Shown: positions 12,701 through 59,876 of the stretch, piece by piece | Layout of the letters: each line of letters begins with the position of its first letter | Numbering within the stretch: position 1 is the stretch's first letter | Source of the DNA: Fibrobacterales bacterium | Lineage (GTDB): Bacteria > Fibrobacterota > Fibrobacteria > Fibrobacterales > JAOPTW01 | DNA length: 64,000 bases | NCBI GenBank assembly: GCA_051532055.1 | Contig: JAOPTX010000003.1 | Location: 153,064 to 217,063 of the forward strand | Direction: 5' to 3' | Position numbers and translations under genes: made by a program | The notes under the pieces: model-generated | What the model was told of the DNA's origin: nothing | Seen by the model: the letters and a program-made list of their open reading frames with translations, nothing else | Databases searched by the model: none

Positions 12701-12782
12701 TTTTAACAATCAACTTCCAAACAATGTTGAACTCGTTAATGAGCATAACCGTTCATTATTAAATTCTCAAATTACAGAATAA
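729..12782 (+). CDS. giant secreted multidomain protein (about 4015 aa) with FlgD-Ig-like modules, thrombospondin type-3 Ca-binding repeats and Ig/CARDB-like modules
   Basis: Uninterrupted 12-kb ORF. The likely real start is ATG 735 ([23 protein letters not shown] signal peptide). At least four 'x-W-D-G-x-D-x-x-G-x-x-v-x-x-G-x-Y' FlgD-Ig-type signatures are present ([50 protein letters not shown]). TSP3 repeats [15 protein letters not shown] / [14 protein letters not shown] / [14 protein letters not shown] lie at nt 3279-3629. 'D-x-AGN' Ig-like modules also occur. Confidence 0.9.
   Translation: [4017 protein letters not shown]
3279..3629 (+). repeat. thrombospondin type-3-like calcium-binding repeats (coding, inside the giant protein)
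   Basis: DxDxDGxxDxxDNC(P/V)Y motifs with paired Cys recur over about 115 aa: [35 protein letters not shown] ... [35 protein letters not shown]. Confidence 0.75.
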
Positions 12783-38510: not shown

Positions 38511-41500
38511 CTATGGGTAGCATTGTATAAAGAGGGTTGCTTGTGGTGTGTTTTCCGAAAGAGTTAGTAAACCATCATGAACGATTCCAGAATTAATACG
38601 CTCTCCATGAATGGTAAACGTCACATAGGTTTTGGCAGATTCTGGGACTCTAAAGGTTCGGTTTGTATTATCAACGGTATTAATGATCATTGAATACGAA
38701 TTCTGATGGGTTAAGGAGTTAAGGGGCGCAGGGTCATCGGAACTTTCTTCTCTATATAAATAGTCTTCACTGCTTGATGAGAGGTCATCTTCAGAATATG
38801 CTATAGAGCTTGAAGAGAGTGAAGAAGATATGTTGGAAGATTCTTCCTCTTCAGATGATGAAAGGGGAAGTGGGGGATTGAGATTTTCGTACACACGGAT
38901 TTCGTGGACCGTAAGTTCATTGCTGGTGCTGTGAAGGCGTATTTTATTGGTAAAGCCAGTATCGAGAGTAATTACATCTACGGGAGTCACGGGCTCTAAT
39001 AGGGGACTGAGTGTAATCCAATTATTTGAATCGTTAAACATTTCAATAGTATAGGTTTCGGGGGTAATTGCTCCCCACTCAATAGCCACCACTCCAATGT
39101 GATATGAGTCTGCGAGATCAATTGCTATCCAGTGGTCAGTATCTATTGCATCACTACGCCAATAGGTATCTGAATCGCCATCATTTACAAAGGTATTGCT
39201 GTCAGCGGCATAGGTGGATGAAGCGTCACTCTCTTTGTTAAGGGCAATATTTGTCTGAGGAGGGATAATTGTGTAAAGACCCGTTTCATCAGAAGTGAGG
39301 GTTGTACTGTGTTTGATATGGAGTGTGAATGAATCACCGTTGTCAAGTGAGTCGGGTATAGGCCACGAAAAGAATCCCGTCTGAGTTGCTACAATACCAA
39401 TGGTATCTGTTGGTGTGTCAGAACGCCTGAGGGTTACGATAACGTACTCTAATTGATTAGAGTGCCATTGCACCGTAATAGAGTCTTGGCTGGTAATGAG
39501 GGCTTTTTGATTGGAGTTGAGAAGATCAAGTGTGGGAATGACTTTACCGAGTGTGAGATCCCAAATACCTTGCCCCCATGTAGAGAAGCGTATGATCTCG
39601 GTATCTCCTTTTTTGACCGTGTTGGCTACGTGGCCTGAGAAAATAGGGACTGATCCTTGGAGAGCAAGGGGGTACCAGCGTTCTTCCGATACAATAAATA
39701 CATAGGGTCCTGCTGAAGTTGATGCAAAAATTAGTGATCCTGTCTCATTGGCAGTCATTCCGTTTACCGGAGATGCAGGGAAGAGGTTACTTCCACTCCC
39801 CGTAACATTAGTCCAAGTAGAGCCACCATCTTTTGAGAATATAGAGCGTACTCCGCTACCCGATTCGGTTGCGAAGAGAATCCTTTGATTGTCGATTGCC
39901 CAGCCCATACCAAAGTTACCTCGGGCAACGCCAAAGGTACCTGTAATCCCTGTTACATTGTTCGAAGCAACTTCACTCCATGAATTACCACGGTTTGTAG
40001 AAGTATAAACGAAACCGTTTTCCATAGCAAATACAATGTCAGGATTCTCATGGGATTGGGCGACTCCTTGTACGAAGTACTGACTATTATTGAGGTCATG
40101 TTCTGTACTAGAAATAGAGCCTCCATTGTATTCAAATTTTCTAAGTCTATGACTCATAGTCCATATACGATCACCATTAGACCAGTCTCCGACGCCAGGG
40201 GTAAAGTAGGCAGCGCCTTTAGAATACCCAGGGTTGTAAATGCTTGACCCAGCTCCACTGAGTCCTTTGTAGGTGCCATCAGAATCATAGAGCTCAATAC
40301 GTTGAAAATTGTCGCTGGCTTGATAATTATATTTCCATGCAATAATTCCATCACCTGATATGCAGTTTGGTCCATCACCACCACCCACTTGATCCCATGA
40401 AAGAAGGTCTGTTCCATAGGTCGAGGCACGGGTATTTTGCCAGCCTTGGTCTTGGGTACACGCAGTCATATCATCTGAGTTGTGTTTGCCCGAAATTAAA
40501 CCGCCGCGGTATGCTTCTTGGGTAGGGGCATTAAAGAGGGTTATATTGTAAAAAATATCTTCTATTGACGCTAGGGATGGGTATGAGGTTTTGGTCCACT
40601 CATTGTATGATTTAAATACCCCTCCATCAGTAGAACGCAATGAGAGAAGAGTACCCGATGCATCATAAAAAAATTGAGATGCTTGGTGGTCGGGGTGAAA
40701 GTGAATGCGAACACGATGATCATTTCCTACGGAATTTTGATAGTGCCCCCACCAGTTTTTTGCATCAGAGTTAGTTGTTGCACCAGCATTGCGTGAAGTG
40801 AGTGGAAATGCATAGCCCCCTATTATTATGTCGGGGTTTTCTGGGTTAATACCGGGATACTGGCCTTGAGCCATGTCAGCTTTCATGCTACTGTACCACC
40901 AATTTTCAGTTGCTTGGTACTGCCAGGTAGCTCCGCCATCGACACTATGATACCACTGTCTACTATCTTGAGTCATCCACAGTCGGCGTGAGTCACCGCC
41001 AAGACCAATTTCTGCGCCACTGGCTATGGTCCCTGATTGTACAAAAGATGTTTTCGCACTATTGAGTGTGTAAAAAGTATTTCCATGAGCAAAATAGACC
41101 GCCGCAGCATTGGGTTGTGTTTGCCAGCGCGGCGTGTAGAGTCTCGCATAGGTGTTGGTGGTAAATGATTGAAAGAGGCTAAATGATGACCCGAGGTCAT
41201 AGGATACATAGACAGATTCGCCATCAGTAGTATAGATGGTATGATTGTCTTGTCTATTTATAATTGTGCTGATGATCCCGTTTGAAACCCCTGCAGAGAA
41301 GGACCAGGTTGCACCTGCATTGTCGGAATACATGATAGAACCTTGCTCTTCACCTGCAATAATTCTCCTTTGTGAACCATTGGGCACAACCATGAGGTCT
41401 TCGAATCGTGAGGGGTGTTTCGGGTTGATTATTTTCCAATCGTCATCAGAAAGAGTCCCTTTCCAGATAAACTGTACACCACCATAATGACCCATACTTA

Positions 41501-41945
41501 CCGCATAGACGGTATCAGTTCCTTCGTCCATTTCACAAAATTGAAAGGCTCCCGGCATATTCGCAGGGCCTCTACTGGTCCATTTACCAGAAAATGTGTT
41601 GTTAGCCAGATTGTAGAATCCATTTTTTTCTACTGAGGGAAGGATCTCTGAAGTGGGGACTGGAGCAGGAGCACCGAGTGTAAGGGTTGCTTTGGGTGAC
41701 CTGATATCGGCATAGCGTTTTTTATTAAAGGCAGCTTCTTCTTTTGTCCAGAGACGACGTTTATGATCACCATAGCGTTCACTCTCTTCGTCTGTTTTAA
41801 TGATAACAGGTTTAGGCCAGTTCGATTCTGTGGCTTTGGATACGCCATCGACCGCTGGATTTGCAGTATAAATAAAGTAATAGCCAATTGAAAGTGCAAC
41901 AGCACAAGAATAGATCACCCAAAAAGAGATGGATTTTTTCTTCAT
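38511..41945 (-). CDS. BNR/Asp-box beta-propeller protein with F5/8 type C (discoidin) domain, Ser-rich linker and C-terminal sorting-like domain
   Basis: Asp-boxes are SVDGGATW, SKDGGSTW, SDNAGATW, STNRGNSW and STDGG. The discoidin-like block is NIALNKESDASSTYAADSNTFVNDGDSDTYWRSDAIDTDHWIAIDLADSYHIGVVAIEW...YTIEMFNDSNNW. The linker contains SSSEEEESSNISSSLSSSS. The N-terminus has a TM/signal anchor. Confidence 0.85.
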   Translation of the reverse strand: MKKKSISFWVIYSCAVALSIGYYFIYTANPAVDGVSKATESNWPKPVIIKTDEESERYGDHKRRLWTKEEAAFNKKRYADIRSPKATLTLGAPAPVPTSEILPSVEKNGFYNLANNTFSGKWTSRGPANMPGAFQFCEMDEGTDTVYAVSMGHYGGVQFIWKGTLSDDDWKIINPKHPSRFEDLMVVPNGSQRRIIAGEEQGSIMYSDNAGATWSFSAGVSNGIISTIINRQDNHTIYTTDGESVYVSYDLGSSFSLFQSFTTNTYARLYTPRWQTQPNAAAVYFAHGNTFYTLNSAKTSFVQSGTIASGAEIGLGGDSRRLWMTQDSRQWYHSVDGGATWQYQATENWWYSSMKADMAQGQYPGINPENPDIIIGGYAFPLTSRNAGATTNSDAKNWWGHYQNSVGNDHRVRIHFHPDHQASQFFYDASGTLLSLRSTDGGVFKSYNEWTKTSYPSLASIEDIFYNITLFNAPTQEAYRGGLISGKHNSDDMTACTQDQGWQNTRASTYGTDLLSWDQVGGGDGPNCISGDGIIAWKYNYQASDNFQRIELYDSDGTYKGLSGAGSSIYNPGYSKGAAYFTPGVGDWSNGDRIWTMSHRLRKFEYNGGSISSTEHDLNNSQYFVQGVAQSHENPDIVFAMENGFVYTSTNRGNSWSEVASNNVTGITGTFGVARGNFGMGWAIDNQRILFATESGSGVRSIFSKDGGSTWTNVTGSGSNLFPASPVNGMTANETGSLIFASTSAGPYVFIVSEERWYPLALQGSVPIFSGHVANTVKKGDTEIIRFSTWGQGIWDLTLGKVIPTLDLLNSNQKALITSQDSITVQWHSNQLEYVIVTLRRSDTPTDTIGIVATQTGFFSWPIPDSLDNGDSFTLHIKHSTTLTSDETGLYTIIPPQTNIALNKESDASSTYAADSNTFVNDGDSDTYWRSDAIDTDHWIAIDLADSYHIGVVAIEWGAITPETYTIEMFNDSNNWITLSPLLEPVTPVDVITLDTGFTNKIRLHSTSNELTVHEIRVYENLNPPLPLSSSEEEESSNISSSLSSSSIAYSEDDLSSSSEDYLYREESSDDPAPLNSLTHQNSYSMIINTVDNTNRTFRVPESAKTYVTFTIHGERINSGIVHDGLLTLSENTPQATLFIQCYP

Positions 41946-42241: not shown

Positions 42242-45200
42242 ATGGCTGTATCAAATACATCTATTATTGAAAGAGAGTTTGATTTGAAATATTTTCATGT
42301 GTTTATTTTGGTTTTTACATTAGTTTCTACTGTTTTTAGTCAAACAGCAATTGCACCATCTTTTGGGGATGGAAGCGAAAAAAGCCCCTATCAGATAGCG
42401 TCTCTTGAAAATCTCTACTGGCTCTCTCAAAATCACACTAAAAAAGACGTTGGTTTTTATGTGCAAACAGCTGACATAGATGCAGCTGCGTCACAACATT
42501 GGGACGGGGGTAAAGGGTTTTATCCCATTGGAAAAGATGATACTAACCCATTTAGTGGTGTATATGATGGTAGTGGCTTTAGTATTGATAACCTCACTAT
42601 TAGCACAGCAAACGCTGTATTTGTTGGGCTCTTTGGCGTCGTACAATATTCACATATTATAAATCTGAGCGTTACCAATGTATTGCTCACAGGTAATCAC
42701 TCGGTAGGTGCTGTTGCGGGAATGTCTATTGGAGGCAGTATTTCTAACTGTTCATCATCAGGGACGGTAAACGGTTCTTATGCTGGGGGGCTTGTAGGGG
42801 TCATTCAAAATACAAGTATTTCTAATAGCTCTGCTATTGTTGAGGTCAGTGGTGTTACTAATGTTGGTGGACTTATTGGGTATATAGAATATGAGGGGAG
42901 TATAATAAACAGCTATAGCAGAGGGGAGGTTACAGGGACTGCGGTCGGTACAGGTGGACTTGTGGGTTTTAATGAAGGTGGAACGATTAAAATGTCTTAT
43001 AGTACTGGTAAAGTAATTGGTGTTGTTCAGGCAGGTGGATTGGTTGGGTTAACGAGAAATGGCAATATTACCAATTCTTTTTGGGCATATGATAGTTCAG
43101 GTCAAACAATGAGTAGCGGTGGAACCGGTGTAATTGCTGATGATCTAAAAAATATACATACCTTTACGGATACCTCAACAGTTGGACTGGATAGTGCTTG
43201 GGATTATATTGGCCACACCAATCAAGATACTGTAAATGGTGATATCTGGATAGTAGGTACCGATGAATACCCCGAGCATACAGTGCGTTTGACATATGAA
43301 ACCAATGATCAGTATAGTATACAGGGAGATACGGTACAGATGCTTAAAAAGGGCGGCAACGCTCGTGAAGTTTTAGTGGTTCCTAATTTTGGATTTCGTT
43401 TTGTTCAGTGGTCTGATGGAAATACAGAAAACCCAAGAGAATATGGCACTGTAAACAGAGCTACAAGAGTATCTGCTATGGTTGTTCTAAAAGATATCTC
43501 ACTCTATAAACCCGATGGAGTAGGGTCGCTAGAGAACCCCTATCAGATTGCATCTCTTGTAAATCTTTTTTGGCTCTCCCAGTCTGATACTGCCTGGGAT
43601 AAGAACTTTGTACAAACAGAGGATATCAATGCGTCAGATACAAAAATTTGGGGCAGTGGGTTTAAGCCAATTGGTAATGACACCATCTCTTTTACTGGAG
43701 CGTACTCAGGGAGTGATCACACTATCGAAGAACTTACAATACAGAGATTTAAGGACTCTTTCGTTGGTATGTTTGGAAAAGTAACCGATGCCGTGATACG
43801 TGATGTGCATTTATTAAATGCATTAATAGAAGGGGGAGAATACAAAACGGGTGGTATTGCAGCAGAAATTAATAATAGTGTTATTTCAAATAGTCACGTA
43901 TCGGGTGTAGTTACTGGAGTAGGAATTGTAGGTGGACTTGTTGGTTATGCTCATTATGGAACTATAATTAATTGTTCTAATAGTGGGGCTATTACTACTA
44001 GTGGGAATCGTTTCAATATTTCCGTTGGTGGTGTCGTAGGCAAAAACGAAAGTGGAACAATTTCAAATTGCTTCAATTCAGGGAATGTGGTGATTTTAGA
44101 TAGTACAACTCAAGGATCATCGAGTTCTGCTGGAGGAGTTGTAGGAAATAATTTATTTGGCTCCATAACGTCAAGTTATAATTCGGGATCTGTAAGTGGA
44201 CATACAAACACTGGAGGAATTGTAGGGACAAACTTTTTTGAGAGTATAATTCAAGAAAGCTATAATACAGGAACCGTTACCGGAAAAGAAAAGGTAGGAG
44301 GGGGTGTGGGACTCAATAATGGCGAAGTGTTTAATAGCTATTCTACAGGAGCAGTGATGGGTACCAATGGAGTCGGTGGCTTTATTGGTAAGTTAGACCA
44401 AGGTGTATTAGTCAATAGTTATAGTGTCGGTTTAGTACAGAGTACGGGTACTGTTGGTGGCTTGGTAGCAGATACGAGTAAGGCAGTAATCATACAGTCA
44501 TTTTGGAATACAGAAACATCGGGTCATAGTGTAAGTAGTGGTGGAACGGGTAAGTCGATTATTCAACTGCAAGCTCTAGAAACGTTTACTGATATATCTA
44601 GCGAGGGGCTTGATAGTGCCTGGGATTTTACTGGTACCGTTGCAGATGACCTTCAATCTGATGATATTTGGAGTATGAATTCAGGGACGTATCCTGAACT
44701 TTCACCTACTTTAACGTACAGTTCCGGCCTGAACTATACCGTTATTGGTGATACCATACAAGTATTCGGATCCGGGAAGACTGTTACGCCTGTAGAAGTG
44801 AAACCACAGTTGGGCTACGCATTTGTTCAGTGGTCGGATGGTAAAAAAGATAACCCTCGCATGGATACTACTGTACAGTCTGAAAGAGCAGTAAGTGCAC
44901 TTGTTATAAAAAGAGATATATCACTGTACAAACCTACCGGAACAGGAACGGCAAATGATCCTTATCTGATAGCAAATTTGGGCAACCTCTATTGGCTTTC
45001 TGAGGTTGATACTGCTTGGCATAACTATTTTCTTCAAACTGCTGATATTAATGCGGCCAAAACCCGCTATTGGTATGGCGGTGCAGGTATTAATTCTATT
45101 GGTAATAGCACTATAAAAACCTTTACAGGAGTGTATGATGGAGGGGGCCATGTTATAGATAGTGTATATTCTTTCTTTAGTTATGGTATAAGGCTTTATG

Positions 45201-47083
45201 AAAAGGGACTCTTTGGTGCTCTTGAAGGGGCGGAAATTAAAAACGTTGGTTTGACCAATGTATATATCGCAGGACACGAAAAAATCGGGGCTCTAGTTGG
45301 CAGAGCAGATAAGGGCAGCACTATTAGGAATAGTTATTCAACGGGGGAAGTAATGGGCTATGCTGATGTCGGAGGATTAGTAGGACGTATGGAAGGAGGG
45401 AGCATTAATACGAGTTATAGTAGATGTGCTGTCACCAATTATTTTAGGGATTTCAGTGGTGGGCTTGTTGGCTCGGGTTATACTGTCGGTATATATAATA
45501 GTTATGCTGCAGCTACTTTAGGTGCAGAGTCAGGCGGTTTAGTGGGGCACTTTACTGATGGACAAATAATAAACAGTTATAGTGTATCTCGCTTTATTGA
45601 CATTACAGGTTCAGGCGGTTTGGTTGCAAGCAATGTAAATAGCATTGTGAAAAATTCATTCTGGAATACCGACTCTGCTCATGGTATTATTGGTGGTGAT
45701 GGTATTGGTAAAACCAGTACAGAAATGCAAGACATTTCGCTGTATACCAATACTGGGAGTCCTGATCTTGATTCAGCATGGGATTTTATTTCAAATCCTC
45801 ACAATGACACAGGCAATACTGACGTTTGGACATTTGAAATGGCTGGAGGGTATCCGGTAATAACTGCACAACTCTTCACTTTCCGCTACAATGCTGAAGT
45901 CAATGGACAGATATCTGGCTTAACGATTCAGAAAGTTGAGTTCGGTACTCAGGGGACAGAAGTTGTCGCTATTCCCGATGAAGGATACCATTTTGTGGTG
46001 TGGAGTGATGGTGTCTTAGATAGTGCTCGTCAGGATACTATAGCAACAAAAGATAGTACAGTAACTGCTCAATTTGAAATCAATAAATACCCTGTAAGCT
46101 ATAGTACAGATACTGGGGGAATAGTCAATGGAGATACCGTTCAATCAATTGAGCATGGCTCAAATGCAACACCAGTAACTGCGGTGGCGAGTACCGGTTT
46201 TAAGTTTTTGCAGTGGTCTGACGGAATTCTAGATACCTTACGTACCGATGTTTCAATTACCAAGACTCTTACTGTTAGTGCAGAGTTTGAAGTAGCTTAT
46301 TTTTCAGTAGAATACCATGTGGGTGATTTTGGAACAATTATTAAAGGAGATACCAATCAACGTATTGCCTTTCAGTCACGAGGTACAGAAGTCACAGTGG
46401 AACCAGATTCAGGATATATTTTTACGGGTTGGACGGATGGTAGTACTGCTAATCCACGGCTGGATACTGGTGTTACTACTACTTTCTCAGTAACGGCTCA
46501 GTTTGAGGTGGTAGGTACTATCATTGTTGATACTATAGGTCAGGATACTACACTCGGAGCGATCATTGATAGTATCTCAATGGTTGATATAGATACGCTT
46601 TCAAATACCAATCCTGATACTGTTCTAGACAACGATTTAGATTCAAATATCACAACTATTGCAGAAGATGAGTTAGTTTCATCATCTGAAAATGAGCTCA
46701 GTAGTGTTGGTGAACAAGAACCTCTCGTTGATTCACTTGAGCAACCCGAAGACAATTCTGATCAGGATAGGGTAGAGCTTTTATTTACGGATAACATGTT
46801 GAATAAGCACAGAATGTCTATAGCAGCTCATAACAGAGATTACATAGAGGTGTTTGTATTTACTCCGGAAAAAAATGCTGAAGTTGTTTTTTATGATTTC
46901 AGAGGGCAAAAGATTGGATATGCCAAAAACTCACTATACTCAGATGGCATACATTATTTTACAATGGAAACAGGAGGGCAAGGAGTGGGACAATTACACG
47001 CTGGTCATTATATAGCTGTCACCCAGTTAGGCATTGGTGCTCAGAAAAAGTATTTGAAAGCAGTTTTTACTGTGACTCATTAG
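42242..47083 (+). CDS. giant GLUG-motif surface protein with Listeria-Bacteroides (InlB B-type) repeats and C-terminal sorting-like domain
   Basis: Dense GLUG motifs (AGGLVGV, VGGLIGY, TGGLVGF, AGGLVGL, NSYSxGxVxG). Three large modules each open with G-x-G-x-x-x-x-P-Y-x-I-A-x-L-x-N-L-x-W-L-S. B-repeat units include GYHFVVWSDGVLDSARQD...VTAQFE, GFKFLQWSDGILD...VSAEFE and GYIFTGWTDGSTANPRLD...VTAQFE. Confidence 0.9.
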   Translation: MAVSNTSIIEREFDLKYFHVFILVFTLVSTVFSQTAIAPSFGDGSEKSPYQIASLENLYWLSQNHTKKDVGFYVQTADIDAAASQHWDGGKGFYPIGKDDTNPFSGVYDGSGFSIDNLTISTANAVFVGLFGVVQYSHIINLSVTNVLLTGNHSVGAVAGMSIGGSISNCSSSGTVNGSYAGGLVGVIQNTSISNSSAIVEVSGVTNVGGLIGYIEYEGSIINSYSRGEVTGTAVGTGGLVGFNEGGTIKMSYSTGKVIGVVQAGGLVGLTRNGNITNSFWAYDSSGQTMSSGGTGVIADDLKNIHTFTDTSTVGLDSAWDYIGHTNQDTVNGDIWIVGTDEYPEHTVRLTYETNDQYSIQGDTVQMLKKGGNAREVLVVPNFGFRFVQWSDGNTENPREYGTVNRATRVSAMVVLKDISLYKPDGVGSLENPYQIASLVNLFWLSQSDTAWDKNFVQTEDINASDTKIWGSGFKPIGNDTISFTGAYSGSDHTIEELTIQRFKDSFVGMFGKVTDAVIRDVHLLNALIEGGEYKTGGIAAEINNSVISNSHVSGVVTGVGIVGGLVGYAHYGTIINCSNSGAITTSGNRFNISVGGVVGKNESGTISNCFNSGNVVILDSTTQGSSSSAGGVVGNNLFGSITSSYNSGSVSGHTNTGGIVGTNFFESIIQESYNTGTVTGKEKVGGGVGLNNGEVFNSYSTGAVMGTNGVGGFIGKLDQGVLVNSYSVGLVQSTGTVGGLVADTSKAVIIQSFWNTETSGHSVSSGGTGKSIIQLQALETFTDISSEGLDSAWDFTGTVADDLQSDDIWSMNSGTYPELSPTLTYSSGLNYTVIGDTIQVFGSGKTVTPVEVKPQLGYAFVQWSDGKKDNPRMDTTVQSERAVSALVIKRDISLYKPTGTGTANDPYLIANLGNLYWLSEVDTAWHNYFLQTADINAAKTRYWYGGAGINSIGNSTIKTFTGVYDGGGHVIDSVYSFFSYGIRLYEKGLFGALEGAEIKNVGLTNVYIAGHEKIGALVGRADKGSTIRNSYSTGEVMGYADVGGLVGRMEGGSINTSYSRCAVTNYFRDFSGGLVGSGYTVGIYNSYAAATLGAESGGLVGHFTDGQIINSYSVSRFIDITGSGGLVASNVNSIVKNSFWNTDSAHGIIGGDGIGKTSTEMQDISLYTNTGSPDLDSAWDFISNPHNDTGNTDVWTFEMAGGYPVITAQLFTFRYNAEVNGQISGLTIQKVEFGTQGTEVVAIPDEGYHFVVWSDGVLDSARQDTIATKDSTVTAQFEINKYPVSYSTDTGGIVNGDTVQSIEHGSNATPVTAVASTGFKFLQWSDGILDTLRTDVSITKTLTVSAEFEVAYFSVEYHVGDFGTIIKGDTNQRIAFQSRGTEVTVEPDSGYIFTGWTDGSTANPRLDTGVTTTFSVTAQFEVVGTIIVDTIGQDTTLGAIIDSISMVDIDTLSNTNPDTVLDNDLDSNITTIAEDELVSSSENELSSVGEQEPLVDSLEQPEDNSDQDRVELLFTDNMLNKHRMSIAAHNRDYIEVFVFTPEKNAEVVFYDFRGQKIGYAKNSLYSDGIHYFTMETGGQGVGQLHAGHYIAVTQLGIGAQKKYLKAVFTVTH
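42355..45880 (+). repeat. three tandem coding modules of about 1.2-1.4 kb inside the GLUG protein
   Basis: Module heads are at about 42355 (GDGSEKSPYQIASLENLYWLSQ), 43510 (GVGSLENPYQIASLVNLFWLSQ) and 44930 (GTGTANDPYLIANLGNLYWLSE). Each is followed by GLUG tracts, then FW(N/A)(T/Y)(E/D)(T/S)SG...DSAWD(F/Y)...D(I/V)W...YPE(H/L), then a B-repeat. The divergence is at protein level, not near-identical DNA. Confidence 0.75.
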
Positions 47084-47089
47084 GTCCTA

Positions 47090-47734
47090 TTGTATCCTAT
47101 GAAAATCTATACACAGAATCGAACGTACATTGTGACTATCAGCATATTATTCATACTCCTTGTACAAGTGAGTTGGGCAAATGATGCTATACCTCAATCA
47201 GCAGAAAATATAGCACCTCTTACCATAGGGGATACCGTTTCAGTTGATACCTGGAATGCACTCACCACAACTTTAAACGCCAAAGAATCTAAAAAACCAT
47301 TGGTCGTTATTTTTTATAGAGGTGGGTGGTGTCCCTATTGCAATAGCCATCTTAAAGAACTTCAAGCTATTGAGTCTGATATTATCAAAAAGGGATATAC
47401 TTTACTGGCAGTGAGCCCCGATAAACCTTCTACGGTAGATGCTCATAAATCAAAGAAAAAGTTACCCATCACCTTAGTCTCTAATAGTGATATGAGTCTC
47501 GCCCTCGATTTCGGTATTGCTTTTCAGGTACCTAAGAGTTTAGTTAACAAGTATTTGAAATCCTATAGTATTGATCTTGAAGGTGACTCAGGAAAAAAAC
47601 ATAATCTTCTTCCAGTGCCTTCAGTTTTTATAATCGATCGGACTCGAGTGATTCACTATGTCTATACCAATGCAAACTATAAGGTGCGCTTAAGTGGTGT
47701 GGAGCTTTTGAAGGTATTGGATACCATCAAATAA
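47090..47734 (+). CDS. exported AhpC/TSA-family peroxiredoxin-like thiol-disulfide oxidoreductase
   Basis: The probable start is ATG 47099 (signal peptide ...VQVSWAND). The thioredoxin-fold motif is VVIFYRGGWCPYCNSHLKELQ. The gene begins only 6-15 nt after the GLUG gene. Confidence 0.8.
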   Translation: MYPMKIYTQNRTYIVTISILFILLVQVSWANDAIPQSAENIAPLTIGDTVSVDTWNALTTTLNAKESKKPLVVIFYRGGWCPYCNSHLKELQAIESDIIKKGYTLLAVSPDKPSTVDAHKSKKKLPITLVSNSDMSLALDFGIAFQVPKSLVNKYLKSYSIDLEGDSGKKHNLLPVPSVFIIDRTRVIHYVYTNANYKVRLSGVELLKVLDTIK

Positions 47735-47976
47735 AGTGTAGGGGAGCATTATGTTATTATGCGCATTATCTGATCATACTCTATCTCCATTCGTAGGCAA
47801 TAGGTAATACTATCTATATAATGTAAAGTCTTGAACAGACTTTAATCATAAATACTATGGAACAATAGATACAAGATAAATCCATCTCTGGACCGCTCTA
47901 CAGCCCCTAATAAGTCTATAATGCTATTCTTGTGTTTATTCTATACATTCATAAATACATACAAAGGGGGAAAGGG

Positions 47977-50900
47977 ATGAAATTCAGCTGCGTATTGGGG
48001 TTTTTACTGATTTTACTATTAAATACGGTATTTGCAGGTCCAGTTACTGATCATGGAGACCTACAGGTGCTCAATAAAGGGGGAGAGTACGGGTATACAA
48101 TCTGTGATATTCATGGTACCCCTTACCAACTTAAAGGTTTTAGTGCCCTCGATCTCAAAAACTGGGATACCGAATGGGTAGTGGGTCATACAATCCCTAA
48201 TATCGTTTCACTTACCGGATCTAACGCAGTGCGTGTCGCTATGTATACCTATGAAGCGGCTCATGGGTATATGAACCAAGATGCCACGGGAAAGGCTCTG
48301 TATCGTCAAAAAATGAAGGATTTGATACAAGATGCAATCTTGTCTGATATCTATATCCTGGTTGATTGGCATATATTAAATGACCCCAATCCTTGGAGTA
48401 CAGAGTATTATAATGAAGCCTATAGCTTTTTTACTGAGATTGCTCAGGAGTATGGTGCCTTTGATAATGTACTCTTTGAACTCGGAAATGAGCCTCTCGC
48501 GGTGAGCTTCCCTCATACCATTAAACCATGGGCTGAACATGTGCTCAGTGGTATCAGACTCTACTCAGATAACCTTGCCACAGTCGGTACTCCAAATTGG
48601 AGTCAATCGGTAGGGGATGTGATACATAATCAAATCACCACTAATGTTGGTCGGGGTGTCCTCTATAACATTCACTTTTACGCAGCAACTCACGGTCAGT
48701 GGTTGAGAGATGCAGGGAACAGTGCTCGTTTAAATAATGTGCCGCTTATCATCTCAGAGTTTGGAACCGTCGATGCCAGTGGTAATGGTACACTCGACTT
48801 GTATCAATCGGGACTCTGGCTTGATTGGGCTCAGAGTCATAATTATAGTTGGTTTAACTGGTCCCTCAGTGTTCGCGACGAAACATCAGCAGCGCTCATT
48901 AATAATGACCTTGCAGGCCCATGGGTTCCGAGTGACTTTTCAACCTCAGGTCGTTGGATTCTTTCGCGCCTCGGGCAGACTTTTGTTGATCATTCAAATA
49001 TTGCATTCGGTAAGACGGCTTATATGAGTAGCACCTATAGTGATTATTACGCATCAAGAGCCGTTGATGGTGTTGTAACTGGTTATAATCCTCAGTTGGC
49101 TCACAGTGCTGGAGGCCCAGCAGAGTGGCTTATGATTGATCTTGGGGCTGCATATGATATTACTGAAACCGAGTGGTTTAATAGACTGGACTGCTGTAGT
49201 GATCGCATGGATAGCTATAGTATTCAATATTCTCTTGATGGTTCTCAGTGGGTGACCGCGAGTGTACAGACTGAAGAGATGGCTTTTCCAACACGTATAG
49301 CTCTTAATGTAGCGGCGCGTTATGTACGAATAGTTTTGAATAAAGCAACGGCTATCAATCTAAGTGAAGTACAAATTTTTGGAACATTAGCACCGATAGA
49401 TACTGATGGCGATGGAATTGAAGATCATGCTGATCAATGTCCAGAAACACCAATAGATGAAATTGTTGATGGCGTTGGTTGTGCGCAGTCCCAGCTTGAT
49501 GATGATAATGATGGCGCTATGAATGATGCAGATGTATGCCCGAGTACTCAATCAGGTGTGTTAGTTGACGCCTTTGGTTGTGGCATTGACAGCGATAGTG
49601 ATGGAGTCTTTGATGGCCTTGACCAGTGTCCAGAAAGTCCAAGAGACTTTCCGGTCGATGTACAGGGGTGTGTTGTTGGGGTGACCAATGTTTCGTACGG
49701 AAAACAAGCCACTCAAAGCAGTACACATCCTTCTTACCCCAATTTGAATGCGAGTGTAGCTGTTGATGGAAACACGTCAGGTGGCTATCCCGATATTGCA
49801 CATAACTATAATGGTACTGCGGGCGAGTGGTGGCAGGTCGATCTTGGGGCGGTTTATTTTATTACATCGAGTAATTGGTGGAATCGTTCTGATTGTTGTT
49901 CGGATCGCATGAGTAACTACACTATTCAAGTTTCTTTGGATGGAGGCGTTTGGACCACAGTATCTGATCAGAATACAATTATGGGTCGCCCCTCTACAAT
50001 TGTTATTAATACAGAGGCACGCTATGTGCGAATGATCATGAATAGTAATACAAACTTTAATTTTTCTGAAGCACAAATCTTTGGGGTACTATCACCACAA
50101 GATCACGACAATGATGGTGTGTTGGATAGTGAAGACCTCTGTGTAAATACTCCTGAAGGTGAAATCATTGATGAAAATGGTTGTGCCGACTCTGAGAGAG
50201 ATAGTGATAATGATGGTGTCATTGATTTAGTTGATATATGCCCTTCAACAGAAACGAATGTAGTTGTTGAGGAGACGGGATGTGGAGTCGACAGTGATAG
50301 TGATGGAGTTTTTGATGGACTCGACCAGTGTACCGATACACCAACGGGCATAGCGGTTGATGTGCAAGGGTGTGTAACGGGAATAACCAATGTTTCTCAA
50401 GGGAAACACGCTACTCAGACCAGCACGTATGCATCGCTCACGGCTTCTCGCGCAGTGGATGGTGACTTAAGTGCTCATCACAATGGTGCAAACCTTGCCC
50501 ATACCAATGAATACAACGCCGGACACTGGTGGCAGGTTGACCTGGGTGATCTTTTCTACGTGACCAACAGTGTGTGGTATAACCGACTTGATTGTTGTAG
50601 TGACCGTATGAATAACTATTCTGTGCAAGGTTCACTTGATGGTGTTGTATGGTTTACTATCTCACTTCAAACGACACAAATGGGATATGGCACTACTATA
50701 CCTGTAGAGAGTCAGGCACGCTATATACGCTTGGTACAAAATAAAGCTGATGCAATCAATTTTGCAGAAGTGCAAATCTTTGGAGTAGTCGTACCTCAAG
50801 ACGCTGACCTTGACGGTGTTATGGGGTCACAAGACCATTGTCCAACAACGCCGATTGGTGAGGTTGTTGATAGTAATGGATGTACAGATGATGAGCGCGA

Positions 50901-51507
50901 TAGTGATTTCGATGGGGTGTATGATATAAACGATCAGTGTCCTGAAGCGGTAATTGGTGCATTAGTATCTCTCCATGGTTGTCCGAGTGATAGTGACGGT
51001 GATGGAGTGTTTGACGGTATTGATCAATGCGTGTCGACTCCCACAAGCGTTCCCGTAGATGGTACAGGGTGTATAACAGGTGTCGGTCTTGTTTCACGAG
51101 GGAAGAGTGCTATGCAGACGAGCACCTATCAAAGCCTTACAGCATCTCGCGCAGTCGATGGGGATTACTATGGTCGGCATAATGGCTATAACCTTGCGCA
51201 CACTGATGGCGCGGGGATTGGTGCATGGTGGCAGGTTGACCTTGGAGCACTCCATTATGTTACCAGTACCTACTGGTGGAATCGTACTGATTGTTGTGCA
51301 GATAGAATGAACAACTATATCATTCAACGGTCTGTTGATGGCACAACGTGGATTGATGTGTCTTACCAAACAAGTCAGATGGGGAGTGGCACAGAGATAT
51401 CGATTAATGGTGACGCACGTTATATTAGACTTATGATGAATAAGCATTCTGATATCAACTTCGCAGAAATGGAAGCGTGGGGAGTTGAGACGTTCTCAGA
51501 GATTTAA
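47977..51507 (+). CDS. GH5 glycoside hydrolase fused to four F-type-lectin (CBM47-like) domains separated by TSP3 calcium-binding linkers
   Basis: The track ORF opens at 47932, but ATG 47977 follows a GGGGGAAAGGG RBS and gives the signal peptide MKFSCVLGFLLILLLNTVFAGP. GH5 motifs are HGDLQV...QLKGFS, VDWHILNDPNP, FELGNEP (acid/base) and IISEFG (nucleophile). Four domains carry AH-x26/27-NR-x-DCC-x-DR. Confidence 0.9.
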   Translation: MKFSCVLGFLLILLLNTVFAGPVTDHGDLQVLNKGGEYGYTICDIHGTPYQLKGFSALDLKNWDTEWVVGHTIPNIVSLTGSNAVRVAMYTYEAAHGYMNQDATGKALYRQKMKDLIQDAILSDIYILVDWHILNDPNPWSTEYYNEAYSFFTEIAQEYGAFDNVLFELGNEPLAVSFPHTIKPWAEHVLSGIRLYSDNLATVGTPNWSQSVGDVIHNQITTNVGRGVLYNIHFYAATHGQWLRDAGNSARLNNVPLIISEFGTVDASGNGTLDLYQSGLWLDWAQSHNYSWFNWSLSVRDETSAALINNDLAGPWVPSDFSTSGRWILSRLGQTFVDHSNIAFGKTAYMSSTYSDYYASRAVDGVVTGYNPQLAHSAGGPAEWLMIDLGAAYDITETEWFNRLDCCSDRMDSYSIQYSLDGSQWVTASVQTEEMAFPTRIALNVAARYVRIVLNKATAINLSEVQIFGTLAPIDTDGDGIEDHADQCPETPIDEIVDGVGCAQSQLDDDNDGAMNDADVCPSTQSGVLVDAFGCGIDSDSDGVFDGLDQCPESPRDFPVDVQGCVVGVTNVSYGKQATQSSTHPSYPNLNASVAVDGNTSGGYPDIAHNYNGTAGEWWQVDLGAVYFITSSNWWNRSDCCSDRMSNYTIQVSLDGGVWTTVSDQNTIMGRPSTIVINTEARYVRMIMNSNTNFNFSEAQIFGVLSPQDHDNDGVLDSEDLCVNTPEGEIIDENGCADSERDSDNDGVIDLVDICPSTETNVVVEETGCGVDSDSDGVFDGLDQCTDTPTGIAVDVQGCVTGITNVSQGKHATQTSTYASLTASRAVDGDLSAHHNGANLAHTNEYNAGHWWQVDLGDLFYVTNSVWYNRLDCCSDRMNNYSVQGSLDGVVWFTISLQTTQMGYGTTIPVESQARYIRLVQNKADAINFAEVQIFGVVVPQDADLDGVMGSQDHCPTTPIGEVVDSNGCTDDERDSDFDGVYDINDQCPEAVIGALVSLHGCPSDSDGDGVFDGIDQCVSTPTSVPVDGTGCITGVGLVSRGKSAMQTSTYQSLTASRAVDGDYYGRHNGYNLAHTDGAGIGAWWQVDLGALHYVTSTYWWNRTDCCADRMNNYIIQRSVDGTTWIDVSYQTSQMGSGTEISINGDARYIRLMMNKHSDINFAEMEAWGVETFSEI
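48994..51504 (+). repeat. four tandem coding repeats of about 700 nt (lectin domain plus TSP3 linker)
   Basis: Lectin units start at about 48994, 49681, 50381 and 51083. The linkers at 49396-49670, 50101-50375 and 50800-51075 each carry three DxDxDGxxDxxDxCP motifs (for example DTDGDGIEDHADQCPETP, DDDNDGAMNDADVCPST, DSDSDGVFDGLDQCPESP). Confidence 0.85.
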
Positions 51508-51574: not shown

Positions 51575-53803
51575 TTAACGCACTCTATTTATTTGAACGA
51601 TATATGCTCTACCATTGGTTTCGAGGTGGGAAATATCAATTGTTTTCGTCCCCACAAACTCCGTGTTTTCATAAAAAGTTCCCAGCAGTTCACCTGACAC
51701 ATTAAAGAGCGAAATAGTATACTCGCCTGGCTCTTGAATTGAAATCACTGCATGTGAACCTGTTTGCATTGAAGTATTTGCTGCTAATTGAGTATCAACT
51801 TCTGTTACCCCAATAGTTAATGTATCGGTATAGGGCATTGAACTACTCGAAAGTGCTGACGATGAAAGCTCCATACTACTTGAACTTTCAATGGAACTAC
51901 TCAAAGAAGAGCTCGATGAAATAATAATTGAACTCGAGCTTTGCATTGCTGCTTCTTCTATAACCACTGTTTGGATGGCATGTCCTTCAATAGTTCCGGT
52001 AAATGAGTATTCACCAAGGGTAATGCTGTATTCCGAAGTACTCTCTTCATCATTGAGGATTACTACTGCAATACTCCCATCACTGTTTAAAGCAGCGGTT
52101 ACCTCTAGTTTTTCTTCACCCGAAATATTTACCTCTCGGGTAACACCTTCAAAAGTTGATTTTTTATCAGTATCCATCTCAGAATCATTTCCCTCTGTAG
52201 AAACTTCAAGTACTGTAGCGCCCGGACGAATAAATTTGCTGAAATGACCAAAAAGATAAAAAGTAGGATTGTAGTGTATCACAGCATCACTCCCACTCCC
52301 TTTAACCATTACTGGCGCTGCGCACCAATTTCCAACATGATTGGGCCCGCCTTGATCATCTAAGACAATGTTCCAGTCAATCCAACCCGTTACCCAGTGA
52401 TTCAAGCTTGAGATGATATCTCGACCATAGCGGTAGACGCCTTCAACAGCAGGTTGATGATAATACGGGTCAATGCCGAGTCCCTCACGGAGATAGTTAT
52501 AGCCTTCACCATCATCATATCCCCATGAGCCGTGATTGCGTTCCCACCACCATTTCCACCAGTCACTTCTCTCAAACCATGGGTTCTCCATGTTATTAGG
52601 GTGGGCATCACTTGCTTGACAATTATCACCACACTTGTCTGGGTCATCAAAGCCAATACCTTCTCCAGGACTATCTCCCCTCAGCTGATCAATGGTAGCT
52701 TCTGTTGCCAATAACTTGAGGTGGGGATATTCTGTATGAAAAAATTCGAGTTCATCAATATAGGTGTTCCAGGTGCTCCAATACCAGTGGAGGCCAATAC
52801 CATCAAAGTCACCTTTGTCAGATTGGTCTTCCATACCTTTTACAAATTGCTTTGCATGGTCACCTTTGTTTTGGTCGAATCCATATATTTCAATGCCTCC
52901 ATAGCCAGCTTTTTCAAGAGCAGGAACGAGTGCATCATGCACATACTCGCCCTCTTGATCACCTTCAAAATGCATGCTTTCCCAGTTAGCGCCATTTCCA
53001 TAAGGTTCATTCACAGGGGTTAGCCCCCAGATATCTATGCCTTCGTTTTTATAGGCATCAAGGTAGGCAACTATGTAGTCGGCAAACGTTGGGTAATGTT
53101 CTTTTTTAAGAACACCACCAAAATAGCCATCACTGTCGGTATATTTTTTAATGACATCAGCATCTTTTTCACCTTCAATCTCTTTCATCCAAGGGGGAGC
53201 GGTCCATGGCGATGCGAGTAATTTCAAATGATCATCACCGGCTAATTCAAGTGCCTGCTTGATCATTGGAACAACATCATACTCCTCTTCTGTATCTTTT
53301 TTTATGGTAAAATCCGATAGATCTTCTTTCATTGCGTAGGTGTACTTGCCGGGCTCAGAAAAATCACAGCTTGCTATGTGAATTCGTGCGAGAGAATAGT
53401 GATTACCTTTAGGGCTAAAAAACGCCTCCATTATTTCATTACGTTTTTTCAGGGGTAATTTGTTGAGTACGATTGCTGATGACTCGGTGAGCGCGCCCCC
53501 AATGCCTGTAATCGTTTGTCGATAACTACTCGGATTAAGGTTTATAGAAATAGTAACAGCGCCATCTGGTGCACTTTTAGTGATAGCCGGGGAATCATCA
53601 AGTGGTGTAAGTTTTTTACCCTTTTTTGATGTTTCATAGATGGTGACGAGTTCGGGAATATAACCGGAAGATTCATTGGTACTGGATGAAAGCTCAGCAT
53701 TGCTGGTAGTGAGCCCAAGGGTTAAAATAAAACTGATTACACTGACCAGTAGTGTAAGATTGTGGGTGTAGAGAGAAAAATAGATTGTATGTGAAAATAT
53801 CAT
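51575..53803 (-). CDS. GH30 glycoside hydrolase (glucosylceramidase-like fold) with Ser-rich linker and C-terminal sorting-like domain
   Basis: GH30-type motifs are QTITGIGGALTESSA, ARIHIASCDFS, LLASPWTAPPWMK, WGLTPVNEP (acid/base Glu), GIGLHWY and LLATEA (nucleophile Glu). The linker is SSSSIIISSSSSLSSSIESSSSMELSSSALSSSS. Confidence 0.88.
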   Translation of the reverse strand: MIFSHTIYFSLYTHNLTLLVSVISFILTLGLTTSNAELSSSTNESSGYIPELVTIYETSKKGKKLTPLDDSPAITKSAPDGAVTISINLNPSSYRQTITGIGGALTESSAIVLNKLPLKKRNEIMEAFFSPKGNHYSLARIHIASCDFSEPGKYTYAMKEDLSDFTIKKDTEEEYDVVPMIKQALELAGDDHLKLLASPWTAPPWMKEIEGEKDADVIKKYTDSDGYFGGVLKKEHYPTFADYIVAYLDAYKNEGIDIWGLTPVNEPYGNGANWESMHFEGDQEGEYVHDALVPALEKAGYGGIEIYGFDQNKGDHAKQFVKGMEDQSDKGDFDGIGLHWYWSTWNTYIDELEFFHTEYPHLKLLATEATIDQLRGDSPGEGIGFDDPDKCGDNCQASDAHPNNMENPWFERSDWWKWWWERNHGSWGYDDGEGYNYLREGLGIDPYYHQPAVEGVYRYGRDIISSLNHWVTGWIDWNIVLDDQGGPNHVGNWCAAPVMVKGSGSDAVIHYNPTFYLFGHFSKFIRPGATVLEVSTEGNDSEMDTDKKSTFEGVTREVNISGEEKLEVTAALNSDGSIAVVILNDEESTSEYSITLGEYSFTGTIEGHAIQTVVIEEAAMQSSSSIIISSSSSLSSSIESSSSMELSSSALSSSSMPYTDTLTIGVTEVDTQLAANTSMQTGSHAVISIQEPGEYTISLFNVSGELLGTFYENTEFVGTKTIDISHLETNGRAYIVQINRVR

Positions 53804-58376: not shown

Positions 58377-59876
58377 TTATTCAGAAACTTTCGTAATATT
58401 CCACTGTTGATTGGCTTCTCCTACATACTCCCATTGGTGAATTGATGCGCCATTCCAATAGGCATACTCAGAAACATCAAGTACTTTTCCACTGAGAACA
58501 TTCATAATAATATATGAACCATTTTCGATTTGTGTAAGAATCCACTGTTGATTAAGGCCATTAACCCAGTCCCACTGATGGGCATTACCACCATTCTCTT
58601 TTGACCACTCGGCAACATCGAGAACTTTTCCACTTGCTACATTAGTAATTGCATGACCAAAAGTACTTGCAGTGATAGTCCATTGTTGGTTGAGTCCACC
58701 ATGAAGGTCCCATTGCTGTATGTTTGAACCATTGTCACCACCTGCACCATCGAGTGCTTTGCCACTATGACGTGCAGTAAGAAAGAAACGTTCAGATGGA
58801 TCCCAGCCAGTTATTTCCGCGATTTTAACAAGATCACCATCTACAGTTAATTGAGTCCAGCCAATATACGAGCCATTGATAACAGGGTATCCTTCATTAG
58901 ATTCAGTATTGGTGACTTGGTTAATGACTGCCCCGTTGTAATGATATACATCAAAGTTTCCACCAGAGATTTGTTTACTCAGGTATACGATGTTACCATT
59001 GTCAATGCGGATATCTTTAACCGTTTCATCATGACTACTGATAGAGGTTGTATTCGTTCCGTCAAAAAGAACCACTTCATAGTGATTAAAGTTATACGGA
59101 GGGTGACCACCGAAGTCGTAACGTGATTTCCAAACGACTTGTCCGTTAGAGATAGCAAACTCGTCATCGGATTGAGGACTGTTACTGATGTTGGTTGTTA
59201 CACCGTTTGAGTGCATAAATACTTCACGATCACTTCCTGGAATATATTCACCCCAAACAATGATGTCATTTTCAACAATAGGGTCCATTGCGCCAATTCC
59301 AGAAGGGATTTGTGTAATAATCCCATCTTTCCAGCTATAGACTTCATGTATTCCGAGCTCTCCACCAACCCAAACAATGTGTCCATTGTGTATACTTGGA
59401 TTGTTATCTCTGATGTCATTGTCAGTAATTTGAACAAGTTCTGAGCCGTTGTAGAAATAAACTTCTGAATCGTTGCCGTCCCACATTGAGAACACCACTT
59501 GGCCGTTGCTGAATGAGAGCCCTTCCCAGCCGAGAGATGCTTCAGGTGCAACGTTGTTTGTTTCTGTACCATTATATATGTGTACACCCGGTTCGTTAGG
59601 AACGTGATAGGCGTACCGACCATTTTCAACTCCTGCAAAACGATCCATAAGGGTGTTTTCCGTTATTTGAGTTGCTTCTATACCGTCAGTGATGAAGAGT
59701 TCTTGGCGCTCTCCATATGCCCATGCCGCTCCAATATATGCGCTGCCATTTTCTACACTAAATAGAATTTTCGACCCTGCTGTTGTTGGGTAGGTTACAT
59801 CGGTAATAGTGTATTTTGCTTGTGCAATAGTAGCAGTGAGCCCTAATGCAATTACTAAATGTTTAAATGCTTTCAT
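58377..59876 (-). CDS. secreted protein with N-terminal beta-propeller-like repeats and a C-terminal ricin-B (CBM13-like) beta-trefoil lectin domain
   Basis: Signal peptide MKAFKHLVIALGLTATIAQA. 'NG-x-(V/I)-(V/I)-W' blades repeat (SNGQVVFSMWDG, HNGHIVWVGG, ENDIIVWGEY, SNGQVVWKS, DNGNIVYLS). The C-terminus has three QxW subrepeats (NIQQWDLHGGLNQQWTI, NAHQWDWVNGLNQQWIL, SIHQWEYVGEANQQWNI). Confidence 0.85.
   Translation of the reverse strand: MKAFKHLVIALGLTATIAQAKYTITDVTYPTTAGSKILFSVENGSAYIGAAWAYGERQELFITDGIEATQITENTLMDRFAGVENGRYAYHVPNEPGVHIYNGTETNNVAPEASLGWEGLSFSNGQVVFSMWDGNDSEVYFYNGSELVQITDNDIRDNNPSIHNGHIVWVGGELGIHEVYSWKDGIITQIPSGIGAMDPIVENDIIVWGEYIPGSDREVFMHSNGVTTNISNSPQSDDEFAISNGQVVWKSRYDFGGHPPYNFNHYEVVLFDGTNTTSISSHDETVKDIRIDNGNIVYLSKQISGGNFDVYHYNGAVINQVTNTESNEGYPVINGSYIGWTQLTVDGDLVKIAEITGWDPSERFFLTARHSGKALDGAGGDNGSNIQQWDLHGGLNQQWTITASTFGHAITNVASGKVLDVAEWSKENGGNAHQWDWVNGLNQQWILTQIENGSYIIMNVLSGKVLDVSEYAYWNGASIHQWEYVGEANQQWNITKVSE

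Follow-up and report, generated by a model that had tools for sequence, protein, structure and literature searches.

A predicted GH5 endoglucanase with four F-type lectin domains on TSP3 spacers in a Fibrobacterales bacterium

Why would a cellulase-type enzyme carry an array of lectin domains predicted to bind a sugar that is absent from its substrate? This question is raised by a gene at positions 47977..51507 (+) of a 64,000-nucleotide stretch of a genome from a marine Fibrobacterales bacterium (GenBank assembly GCA_051532055.1, contig JAOPTX010000003.1, positions 153,064 to 217,063 of the forward strand; the whole stretch is hereafter called the window). Its product combines a catalytic domain of glycoside hydrolase family 5 (GH5) with four domains of F-type lectin character that are spaced by thrombospondin type 3 (TSP3) repeats. 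In cellulases, carbohydrate-binding modules (CBMs) are normally directed at cellulose or at a plant polymer next to it. Here, we propose that this protein is probably a secreted GH5 endo-beta-1,4-glucanase whose four-site lectin array keeps it bound to glycans that bear fucose, whereby we infer fucose binding, the natural ligand, and the substrate range of the enzyme from sequence and predicted structure. If true, the four fucose lectins would extend the principle of targeting and proximity to a sugar that the substrate itself lacks.

Domain layout and lectin identity

The complete open reading frame (ORF) extends over 47932..51507 (+) when counted from an upstream GTG. Translation from the ATG at 47977 (ORF 47977..51507, +) gives a product of 1176 amino acids (aa); the same start is found in an 87%-identical orthologue, P0001, and it yields a typical Sec signal peptide. 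This signal peptide (aa 1-20; 47977..48036, +) was read straight from the sequence as MKFSCVLGFLLILLLNTVFA, followed by GPV, and matching N-termini occur in P0001 and in a stand-alone GH5 from an Alteromonadaceae genome. The protein has no lipobox and, by Pfam scan, no C-terminal sorting or anchor domain. A preliminary description of this DNA had proposed a single GH5 protein with four lectin domains and TSP3 linkers, and Pfam returned these parts as Cellulase, four F5_F8_type_C_2, and TSP_3.

The catalytic domain (aa 21-335; 48037..48981, +), of the (beta/alpha)8 type, matches Pfam PF00150 (Cellulase) with 127.7 bits against a cut-off of 23.5 (7.7e-37) and the PDB structures 6gjf (2e-58), 4xzb (2e-55), 3pzt (2e-52), and 1a3h (2.5e-49). 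Over the whole catalytic domain it is about 40% identical to solved endo-beta-1,4-glucanases, including Bacillus agaradhaerens Cel5A (1a3h), the B. subtilis enzyme (3pzt), and Geobacillus CelA (4xzb), with which it has the NEP and (S/T)E(F/W)G motifs in common. The predicted acid/base E172 (LGNEP) and the predicted nucleophile E261 (ISEFG) align with NEP and TEWG of 6gjf, 4xzb, and 3pzt. With a Pfam score far above the cut-off and both catalytic motifs aligned, the initial assignment to GH5 is upheld. Judging from the alignment, the active site is intact, both catalytic glutamates being present, and the domain is most likely of the endo-beta-1,4-glucanase type. We take the closest solved enzymes (Bacillus, Geobacillus, Erwinia CelZ, and Thermobifida E5 types) to belong to subfamily GH5_2. 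Where known GH5 endoglucanases have a binding module, it is a cellulose-binding one, for example CBM3 or CBM17/28; others have no module at all, and we know of no such enzyme reported with CBM47.

The lectin domains, each of about 140 aa, occupy most of the remaining protein. F-type lectin domain 1 (FLD1; aa 336-473; 48982..49395, +) contains H376, R403, D405, C406-C407, and R410 and was recognised by motif and profile matches. Domain 2 (aa 566-707; 49672..50097, +) has the same motif in H609, R637, D639, C640-C641, and R644 and scores 161 bits against the lectin-domain profile; domain 3 (aa 800-940; 50374..50796, +), with H842, R870, D872, C873-C874, and R877, is the one that was modelled with AlphaFold2. 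The protein ends with domain 4 (aa 1033-1176 plus stop; 51073..51507, +), in which the motif residues are H1075, R1103, D1105, C1106-C1107, and R1110 and aa 1039-1168 match lectinolysin at 4e-11. A regular-expression scan of the protein for H-x(26-27)-R-x-D-x4-R gave exactly four matches (aa 376-410, 609-644, 842-877, and 1075-1110), which bears out the pattern AH-x(26-27)-NR-x-DCC-x-DR first noted for each domain. Between His and Arg lie 26 residues in domain 1 and 27 in each of the other three domains, and the second half of the motif reads NR-x-DCC-[SA]-DR in all four. While the later domains are only 43-50% identical to domain 1, the motif residues are invariant. This invariance, a four-fold 699-nt periodicity, and the purifying selection described below rule out a chance motif.

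In Pfam, the lectin domains appear as four matches to F5_F8_type_C_2 (5.1e-72) or F5_F8_type_C (5e-58). Because Pfam has no F-type lectin model of its own, we ranked the domains against solved structures, using a profile built from all four of them. The best match in the PDB was the striped-bass fucolectin MsaFBP32 (3cqo; 3.8e-23), followed by the lectin domain of lectinolysin (4gwi/3le0; 4e-18 to about 5e-18), the eel agglutinin AAA (1k12; 9e-12), and pneumococcal SpX-1 (2j1r; 3.3e-11) and SpX-3 (3e-10), which we take to be the modules that define CBM47. The best CBM32 or NedA-type modules reached only 5.5e-7 or weaker. The His, Arg-x-Asp, Cys-Cys, and final Arg of the window domains share alignment columns with H52, R79, D81, C82-C83, and R86 of AAA, and likewise with MsaFBP32. 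For domain 3, an AlphaFold2 model that drew on 34 relatives bearing the motif (pLDDT 94.1, pTM 0.89) was compared with the PDB by Foldseek, and ranks 1-11 were all F-type lectins (TM 0.81-0.87, E-values 3e-12 to 5e-11). The first match outside this family was a CBM32-type chitosan-binding module at 3.5e-9, and CBM32 E-values in general were two to three orders worse. All solved structures among the top Foldseek matches are fucose binders. Sequence ranking, fold ranking, and the aligned triad thus agree with the original proposal of F-type lectins, which correspond to CBM47 in CAZy, rather than generic discoidin or CBM32 modules. PF22633 ('NedA-like galactose-binding domain') and the F5_F8_type_C label were rejected as identities, being outranked by F-type lectins in both sequence and fold. 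In public annotation the lectin identity is at present hidden, as the orthologue is named 'discoidin domain-containing protein' by NCBI.

The F-type lectin family is defined by its beta-barrel jellyroll fold, a fucose motif, a vicinal disulfide that touches C1-C2 of fucose, and a cation motif, h2DGx (PMC5712786). The fucose motif is printed as H-x24-R-x-D-x4-R/K (PMC5712786), but the AAA numbering in the same article (H52, R79, R86) implies 26 intervening residues and not the printed x24. In AAA, Cys82-Cys83 contacts C1-C2 of fucose (PMC5712786); this vicinal pair has been lost in some F-type lectin domains. All four window domains have DCC, with a putative disulfide, and the cation motif in the form AVDG(V/N/D/D). 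A Glu equivalent to E147 is likewise invariant in the four domains and lies within (S/A)E(V/A/M) before the last strand. The position aligned with Ser49 of AAA is occupied by Q, D, N, and N in domains 1-4; substitutions described at this position are D, Q, E, T, and Y (PMC5712786), and Asn could possibly act as a calcium ligand. As predicted from sequence and model, fold, fucose motif, vicinal Cys-Cys, and h2DGx are all present in each of the four domains.

Between the lectin domains lie three linkers of exactly 92 aa, each with three TSP3 repeats. The DxDxDG sites start at aa 475, 508, and 538 in linker 1 (aa 474-565; 49396..49671, +), at aa 709, 742, and 772 in linker 2 (aa 708-799; 50098..50373, +), and at aa 942, 975, and 1005 in linker 3 (aa 941-1032; 50797..51072, +). 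Seven of these nine repeats fit the full DxDxDGxxDxxDxC pattern, and each of the nine contains a C-x13-C pair. Pfam TSP_3 (PF02412) was matched with 65.9 bits against a cut-off of 25 (2.5e-18), and aa 941-1029 of linker 3 match 5wtl, an OmpA family protein, at 7.5e-5. The linkers are hence calcium-type TSP3 repeats, as had been suggested. The suggested spacing holds for the three repeats in each of the three linkers, but not for the first lectin domain, which abuts the GH5 domain directly without a TSP3 spacer. The mature modules together contain 26 cysteines, i.e., the nine C-x13-C pairs and the four vicinal CC. Since the gene harbours a four-copy DNA repeat with a period of 699-702 nt and the linkers are of equal length, the unit of one lectin domain and three TSP3 repeats arose, on this sequence evidence, by old tandem duplication.

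Known counterparts and occurrence of the architecture

Several known systems share part of this design. SP2159 of Streptococcus pneumoniae (GH98; SpX-1 to SpX-3; 2j1r-2j1v, 2j22) also has several lectin copies C-terminal to a glycoside hydrolase, and its modules have the same fold (TM 0.84-0.87), a homologous sequence (3e-11), and the triad. Its catalytic partner, however, is a blood-group endo-beta-galactosidase that finds fucose on its own substrate, whereas the partner here is a cellulase-type GH5. The window protein further differs by keeping the vicinal Cys-Cys and by its TSP3-spaced copies, and identity to the pneumococcal modules is only 21-27%. AAA and MsaFBP32 have NR-x-DCC-x-(E/D)R, the fucose-contacting Cys-Cys, and h2DGx in common with the window domains, and MsaFBP32 also has its domains in tandem. 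Both, however, are stand-alone serum lectins of innate immunity without enzyme or TSP3 linkers, and the AAA disulfides C50-C146 and C108-C124 are absent from the window domains, which contain only two vicinal Cys each. The lectin domain of lectinolysin from Streptococcus mitis (3le0, 4gwi) is the top fold match and aligns over its full length (4e-18) with the triad in register. Lectinolysin resembles the window protein as a bacterial F-type lectin joined to an effector domain, but carries a single copy on a pore-forming cytolysin and lacks the Cys-Cys (NRGDGNVANR). A GH29 fucosidase (PMC13594953) and a GH53 galactanase (PMC3617157) are bacterial glycosidases with an appended F-type lectin or CBM47 as well, yet with a single lectin copy, other catalytic families, and no TSP3 spacers. 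SL2-1 of Streptomyces was considered as a further bacterial relative and dismissed, as it has, according to its authors, no relation to F-type lectins.

Bacterial TSP3 proteins (5wtl, PA1041-type, MtsC, and TraB) contain the same DxDxDGxxDxxDxC repeats with the second Cys. There, the repeats belong to envelope anchors, whereas in the window protein they form 92-aa spacers between carbohydrate-binding modules. Membership in the corresponding NCBIfam families was rejected, with scores of 107.5 against 250 for the PA1041 anchor lipoprotein, 72.4 against 350 for MtsC, and 55.9 against 700 for TraB; only the TSP3 repeats are common. In the study of 5wtl, calcium binding reportedly depended on the intra-repeat disulfide.

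Rarity of the complete architecture was assessed by two database searches. A word-indexed search of 5.8 billion clusters yielded 60 proteins, and an exhaustive phmmer pass was made over 1.84 billion representative proteins; its best 150 matches and the 60 proteins were rescanned with local GH5 and lectin profiles. Proteins that join just one lectin domain to a GH5 of a distant subfamily would rank beneath these 150 phmmer matches and could have escaped detection. Among the proteins covered by the word-indexed search and this rescan, GH5 together with an F-type lectin occurred only in P0001 and a second protein, P0002, from the same metagenome-assembled genome (MAG). Among the proteins rescanned, the combination is thus confined to one Fibrobacterales lineage, in line with the preliminary description of a GH5 with four lectin copies and TSP3 repeats as a previously unseen architecture. 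No GH5 with CBM47 and no F-type lectin cellulase was described in the literature searched, where only inventories of carbohydrate-active enzymes (CAZymes) surfaced.

Each pairwise combination of the modules, by comparison, was present elsewhere in the rescan. GH5 with TSP3 occurred in seven other representatives and lectin with TSP3 in three, one of them an M60 peptidase. About seventeen further clusters contain four or more motif-bearing lectin domains, and at least one of them is bacterial (Bacteroidota, P0003). The additional statement that F-type lectin modules are uncommon in bacteria was overstated: dozens of metagenomic protein clusters contain motif-bearing domains, some in 4-13 copies, and F-type lectins are already listed in many bacterial phyla, although the prokaryotic ones are described as mostly single-domain (PMC5712786). 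TSP3 arrays also space CBM6 or CBM4_9 modules in unrelated metagenomic proteins, with four CBM6/35 in P0067 and three CBM4_9 in P0140, and P0077 combines an M60 mucinase-like peptidase with an F-type lectin domain, CBM6, and TSP3 repeats. Runs of TSP3 as regular spacers between carbohydrate-binding modules thus seem to be a recurring, little-described design. Known families account for every module of the window protein, and CBM47 is already familiar from other modular CAZymes; new are the cellulase-type GH5 partner, the four-copy valency, and the regular TSP3 spacing. The searches also brought up P0064, a 2865-aa eukaryote-looking membrane protein with 37 tandem copies of an F-type lectin domain's N-terminal half only, without the R-x-DCC part, which is either an odd repeat protein or an artefact of gene model or assembly.

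Both P0001 and its paralogue P0002 come from MAG tPB_Fibr2, one of two Fibrobacteres that, at a depth of 855 m, dominated the biofilm degrading a 'transparent paperboard' made of pure cellulose (PMC11980830). The overall identity of 87% between the window protein and P0001, its nearest relative, is unevenly distributed, being highest in the GH5 domain (95%), lower in the lectin domains (81-93%), and lowest in the linkers (74-82%). The ratio of nonsynonymous to synonymous substitution rates (dN/dS, Nei-Gojobori) against P0001 is 0.036 for GH5, 0.04-0.10 for the lectin domains (FLD1 0.037), and 0.09-0.22 for the linkers. Purifying selection acts on every module, and it is stronger on the lectin domains than on the spacers; because of their dN/dS of 0.04-0.10 we regard the lectin domains as maintained by selection. 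Neither among the four domains nor in the orthologue is there any change in the triad, the Asp, the CC, or the calcium motif.

P0002 (locus L002, 2743-6747) keeps GH5-FLD1 and replaces the later lectins by other beta-sandwich-like modules on TSP3 spacers. Its 14 TSP3 repeats space two near-identical modules of about 140 aa (about aa 600-738 and 930-1071) without Pfam match, and its C-terminal module begins with IEAENF and looks CBM6/35-like. The stand-alone GH5 of the Alteromonadaceae MAG NORP12 (NVXL01000065.1; locus L005, 5965-6990) is 67% identical including the signal peptide and has a stop codon right behind the catalytic domain, and the sequences suggest that the cellulase core was shared horizontally between marine Gammaproteobacteria and Fibrobacterales. 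Because this stand-alone GH5 exists and P0002 swaps its later modules, the lectin array behaves like a binding cassette that can be exchanged and that was joined to a cellulase core with horizontal mobility.

Fucose targeting and alternative explanations

In the most probable reading, the lectin array would place the enzyme where its substrate is embedded in fucose-bearing material. Briefly, each lectin domain would bind terminal alpha-L-fucose, or a sugar of similar configuration, weakly, by means of the His/Arg/Arg triad, the Asp that is predicted to form a salt bridge with the first Arg, the putative vicinal Cys-Cys disulfide, and a structural calcium site formed by AVDG and the conserved Glu. 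Four weak sites on one chain could then provide avidity, while disulfide-locked, calcium-loaded TSP3 segments would hold the sites apart. The glucanase would thereby be concentrated where beta-1,4-glucan is surrounded or coated by fucose-decorated material, combining targeting and proximity. Candidate materials could include fucosylated xyloglucan on plant debris, fucose-rich algal walls, and marine exopolymer; the preliminary description had suggested xyloglucan, fucoidan, and mucin as possible substrates.

A fucose ligand is supported by the partners of related lectin domains, as the nearest relatives are joined to fucose-related enzymes, namely GH98 (P0022, P0044, P0051), GH95 (P0047), fragments named alpha-L-fucosidase by JGI, and the M60 mucinase-like peptidase P0077. 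A search with the lectin profile for other lectin proteins of Fibrobacterales recovered only short fragments of up to 252 aa. There is also precedent for the function of such modules on glycosidases, in that a GH29 fucosidase is enhanced by its F-type lectin domain (PMC13594953) and CBM47 is found on a GH53 galactanase acting on plant walls (PMC3617157).

If this proposal is true, deep-sea cellulose would be broken down within a physical setting of fucose-decorated material (xyloglucan-coated debris, algal walls, marine gels, or the producer's own biofilm). As the host of the closest relative dominated a cellulose-degrading biofilm at 855 m, the GH5-lectin protein is a concrete candidate for a role in marine cellulose turnover. 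It would also offer a ready-made, predicted tetravalent fucose-binding scaffold with rigid calcium-dependent spacers for the engineering of glycan probes.

Several points weigh against fucose targeting. Among solved structures, the catalytic domain is closest to enzymes that are, to our understanding, cellulases and not xyloglucanases, and a xyloglucan-specific role is not implied by this domain. The His-Arg spacing is one residue longer than that of AAA in three of the four lectin domains, no fucosidase or fucose-utilisation gene was found within the 64-kb window, and an AlphaFold2 model of GH5 plus FLD1 (pTM 0.69, pLDDT 85) resolved no fixed orientation between the domains. This model speaks neither for nor against a rigid GH5-FLD1 unit in which the lectin would read a fucosyl side chain beside the cleavage site. 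F-type lectins moreover require terminal fucose with free 3-OH and 4-OH (PMC5712786), and the internal or sulfated fucose of fucoidan may bind poorly. Finally, the host of the orthologue was enriched on pure regenerated cellulose (PMC11980830); because that substrate contains no fucose, the lectins were not needed to reach the cellulose board.

This last point leads to the main rival, enzyme retention, in which the lectin array would tether the cellulase to fucose glycans of the producer's own surface (lipopolysaccharide or capsule) or of its biofilm matrix. Enzyme and products would be kept near the cell in open seawater, as a lectin-based counterpart of cell-surface enzyme display, and calcium-stiffened TSP3 segments could serve as stalks in calcium-rich seawater. 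Such a role is consistent with the Sec signal and the lack of a C-terminal sorting or anchor domain in the Pfam scan, and with TSP3 repeats being typical of cell-envelope proteins (the models of the PA1041-type anchor, MtsC, and TraB; the OmpA family protein 5wtl). Neighbouring secreted proteins, on visual inspection, do have tail-like segments at their C-termini. In addition, the orthologue's host formed its biofilm on the fucose-free board while both dominant Fibrobacteres expressed GH5 endoglucanases (PMC11980830). On the other hand, no evidence points to fucosylated glycans on the surface of these bacteria, and within the window the lectin is found on this one enzyme alone, unlike a general anchor such as dockerin. 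P0002, in which three lectins are swapped for other CBM-like modules, looks rather like diversity in substrate binding. We therefore regard retention as unlikely, although sequence data do not separate it from targeting. To our knowledge, marine Fibrobacterales have no cohesin-dockerin cellulosomes. If true, retention would amount to lectin-based enzyme display on the surface of marine Fibrobacterales and would help to explain their dominance on deep-sea cellulose.

The F-type fold could also have been kept for another ligand, such as 3-O-methyl-galactose, L-galactose, or another 6-deoxy sugar, or could serve mainly in cell-cell adhesion or in attachment to a host surface, with the cellulase as a passenger. 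AAA indeed also binds 3-O-methyl-D-galactose and 3-O-methyl-D-fucose, and co-option for other roles is described for some F-type lectin domains (PMC5712786). The pocket loops (complementarity-determining regions, CDRs) are variable in the window domains, three of which have the one-residue insertion between His and Arg. We nevertheless consider a change of ligand or function quite improbable, given that strong purifying selection has left the full triad, Asp, CC, and calcium motif unchanged throughout the four domains and both orthologues, and that fucose is bound by every solved structure among the top matches.

That the modules are ordinary discoidin or CBM32 (galactose-type) domains whose motif resemblance is coincidental, as their best Pfam names (PF22633 and F5_F8_type_C) and the NCBI label of the orthologue would have it, is largely refuted and extremely improbable, since, in sequence scores, CBM32 and NedA structures fall 4 to 16 orders of magnitude behind F-type lectins and, in the fold comparison, rank below all of them, and since a true generic F5/8 type C domain in the window lacks the motif and reaches 14.9 bits against the lectin profile, compared with about 160 bits for each lectin domain. 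This generic domain (aa ~908-1008) is that of the 1144-aa BNR protein (38511-41945, -) to which the preliminary description had contrasted the lectin domains, and the contrast holds.

Genomic neighbourhood

Directly upstream of the GH5-lectin gene lies a gene for a secreted redoxin of the AhpC/TSA fold with a WCPYC motif (47090-47734, +; Pfam AhpC-TSA, 9.4e-19), and a redoxin gene takes the same place in the locus of the orthologue (L001, 9157-9822). The redoxin may be a dedicated disulfide helper for the cysteine-rich GH5-lectin protein, but its place in the feature is uncertain. A promoter-like site with 10 of 12 matches is located between the two genes (47794-47822). Synteny with the orthologous locus is limited to this upstream gene and a downstream ricin-lectin gene (58377-59876, -), which encodes a protein of about 500 aa with a C-terminal ricin-B (CBM13) lectin and an N-terminal part of about 360 aa without assignment and is conserved at L001 17117-18619 (-). 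The orthologue is further preceded, 3-10 kb upstream (L001, 1-6673), by a cluster resembling type II secretion and type IV pilus systems (T2SSE ATPase, secretin, PilO, and N-methyl pseudopilins), an arrangement that is not present in the window.

The GH5-lectin gene converges with a gene for a 742-aa GH30 of the glucosylceramidase/SrfJ type (51575-53803, -; 2wnw, 4e-49), in which a serine-rich stretch and an additional domain at the C-terminus are found. CBM42- and CBM13-bearing proteins are also encoded in the window, and the genome can be recognised as Fibrobacter-type by the Fib_succ_major and DUF4423 domains that neighbouring genes encode. The 1144-aa BNR protein has no Pfam match at E<=1e-5 outside its F5/8 type C domain. 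Immediately upstream of the redoxin gene, a 1613-aa secreted protein (42242-47083, +) contains three GLUG-motif blocks, InlB B-repeat (Flg_new) domains, and a weak match to the N-terminal region of M26 peptidases. Two giant ORFs of 4017 aa (729-12782, +) and 2142 aa (12794-19222, +), the second with RHS repeats, are located in a stretch of lower GC content (about 34-36%, compared with 38-45% downstream) and may represent a toxin or adhesin island.

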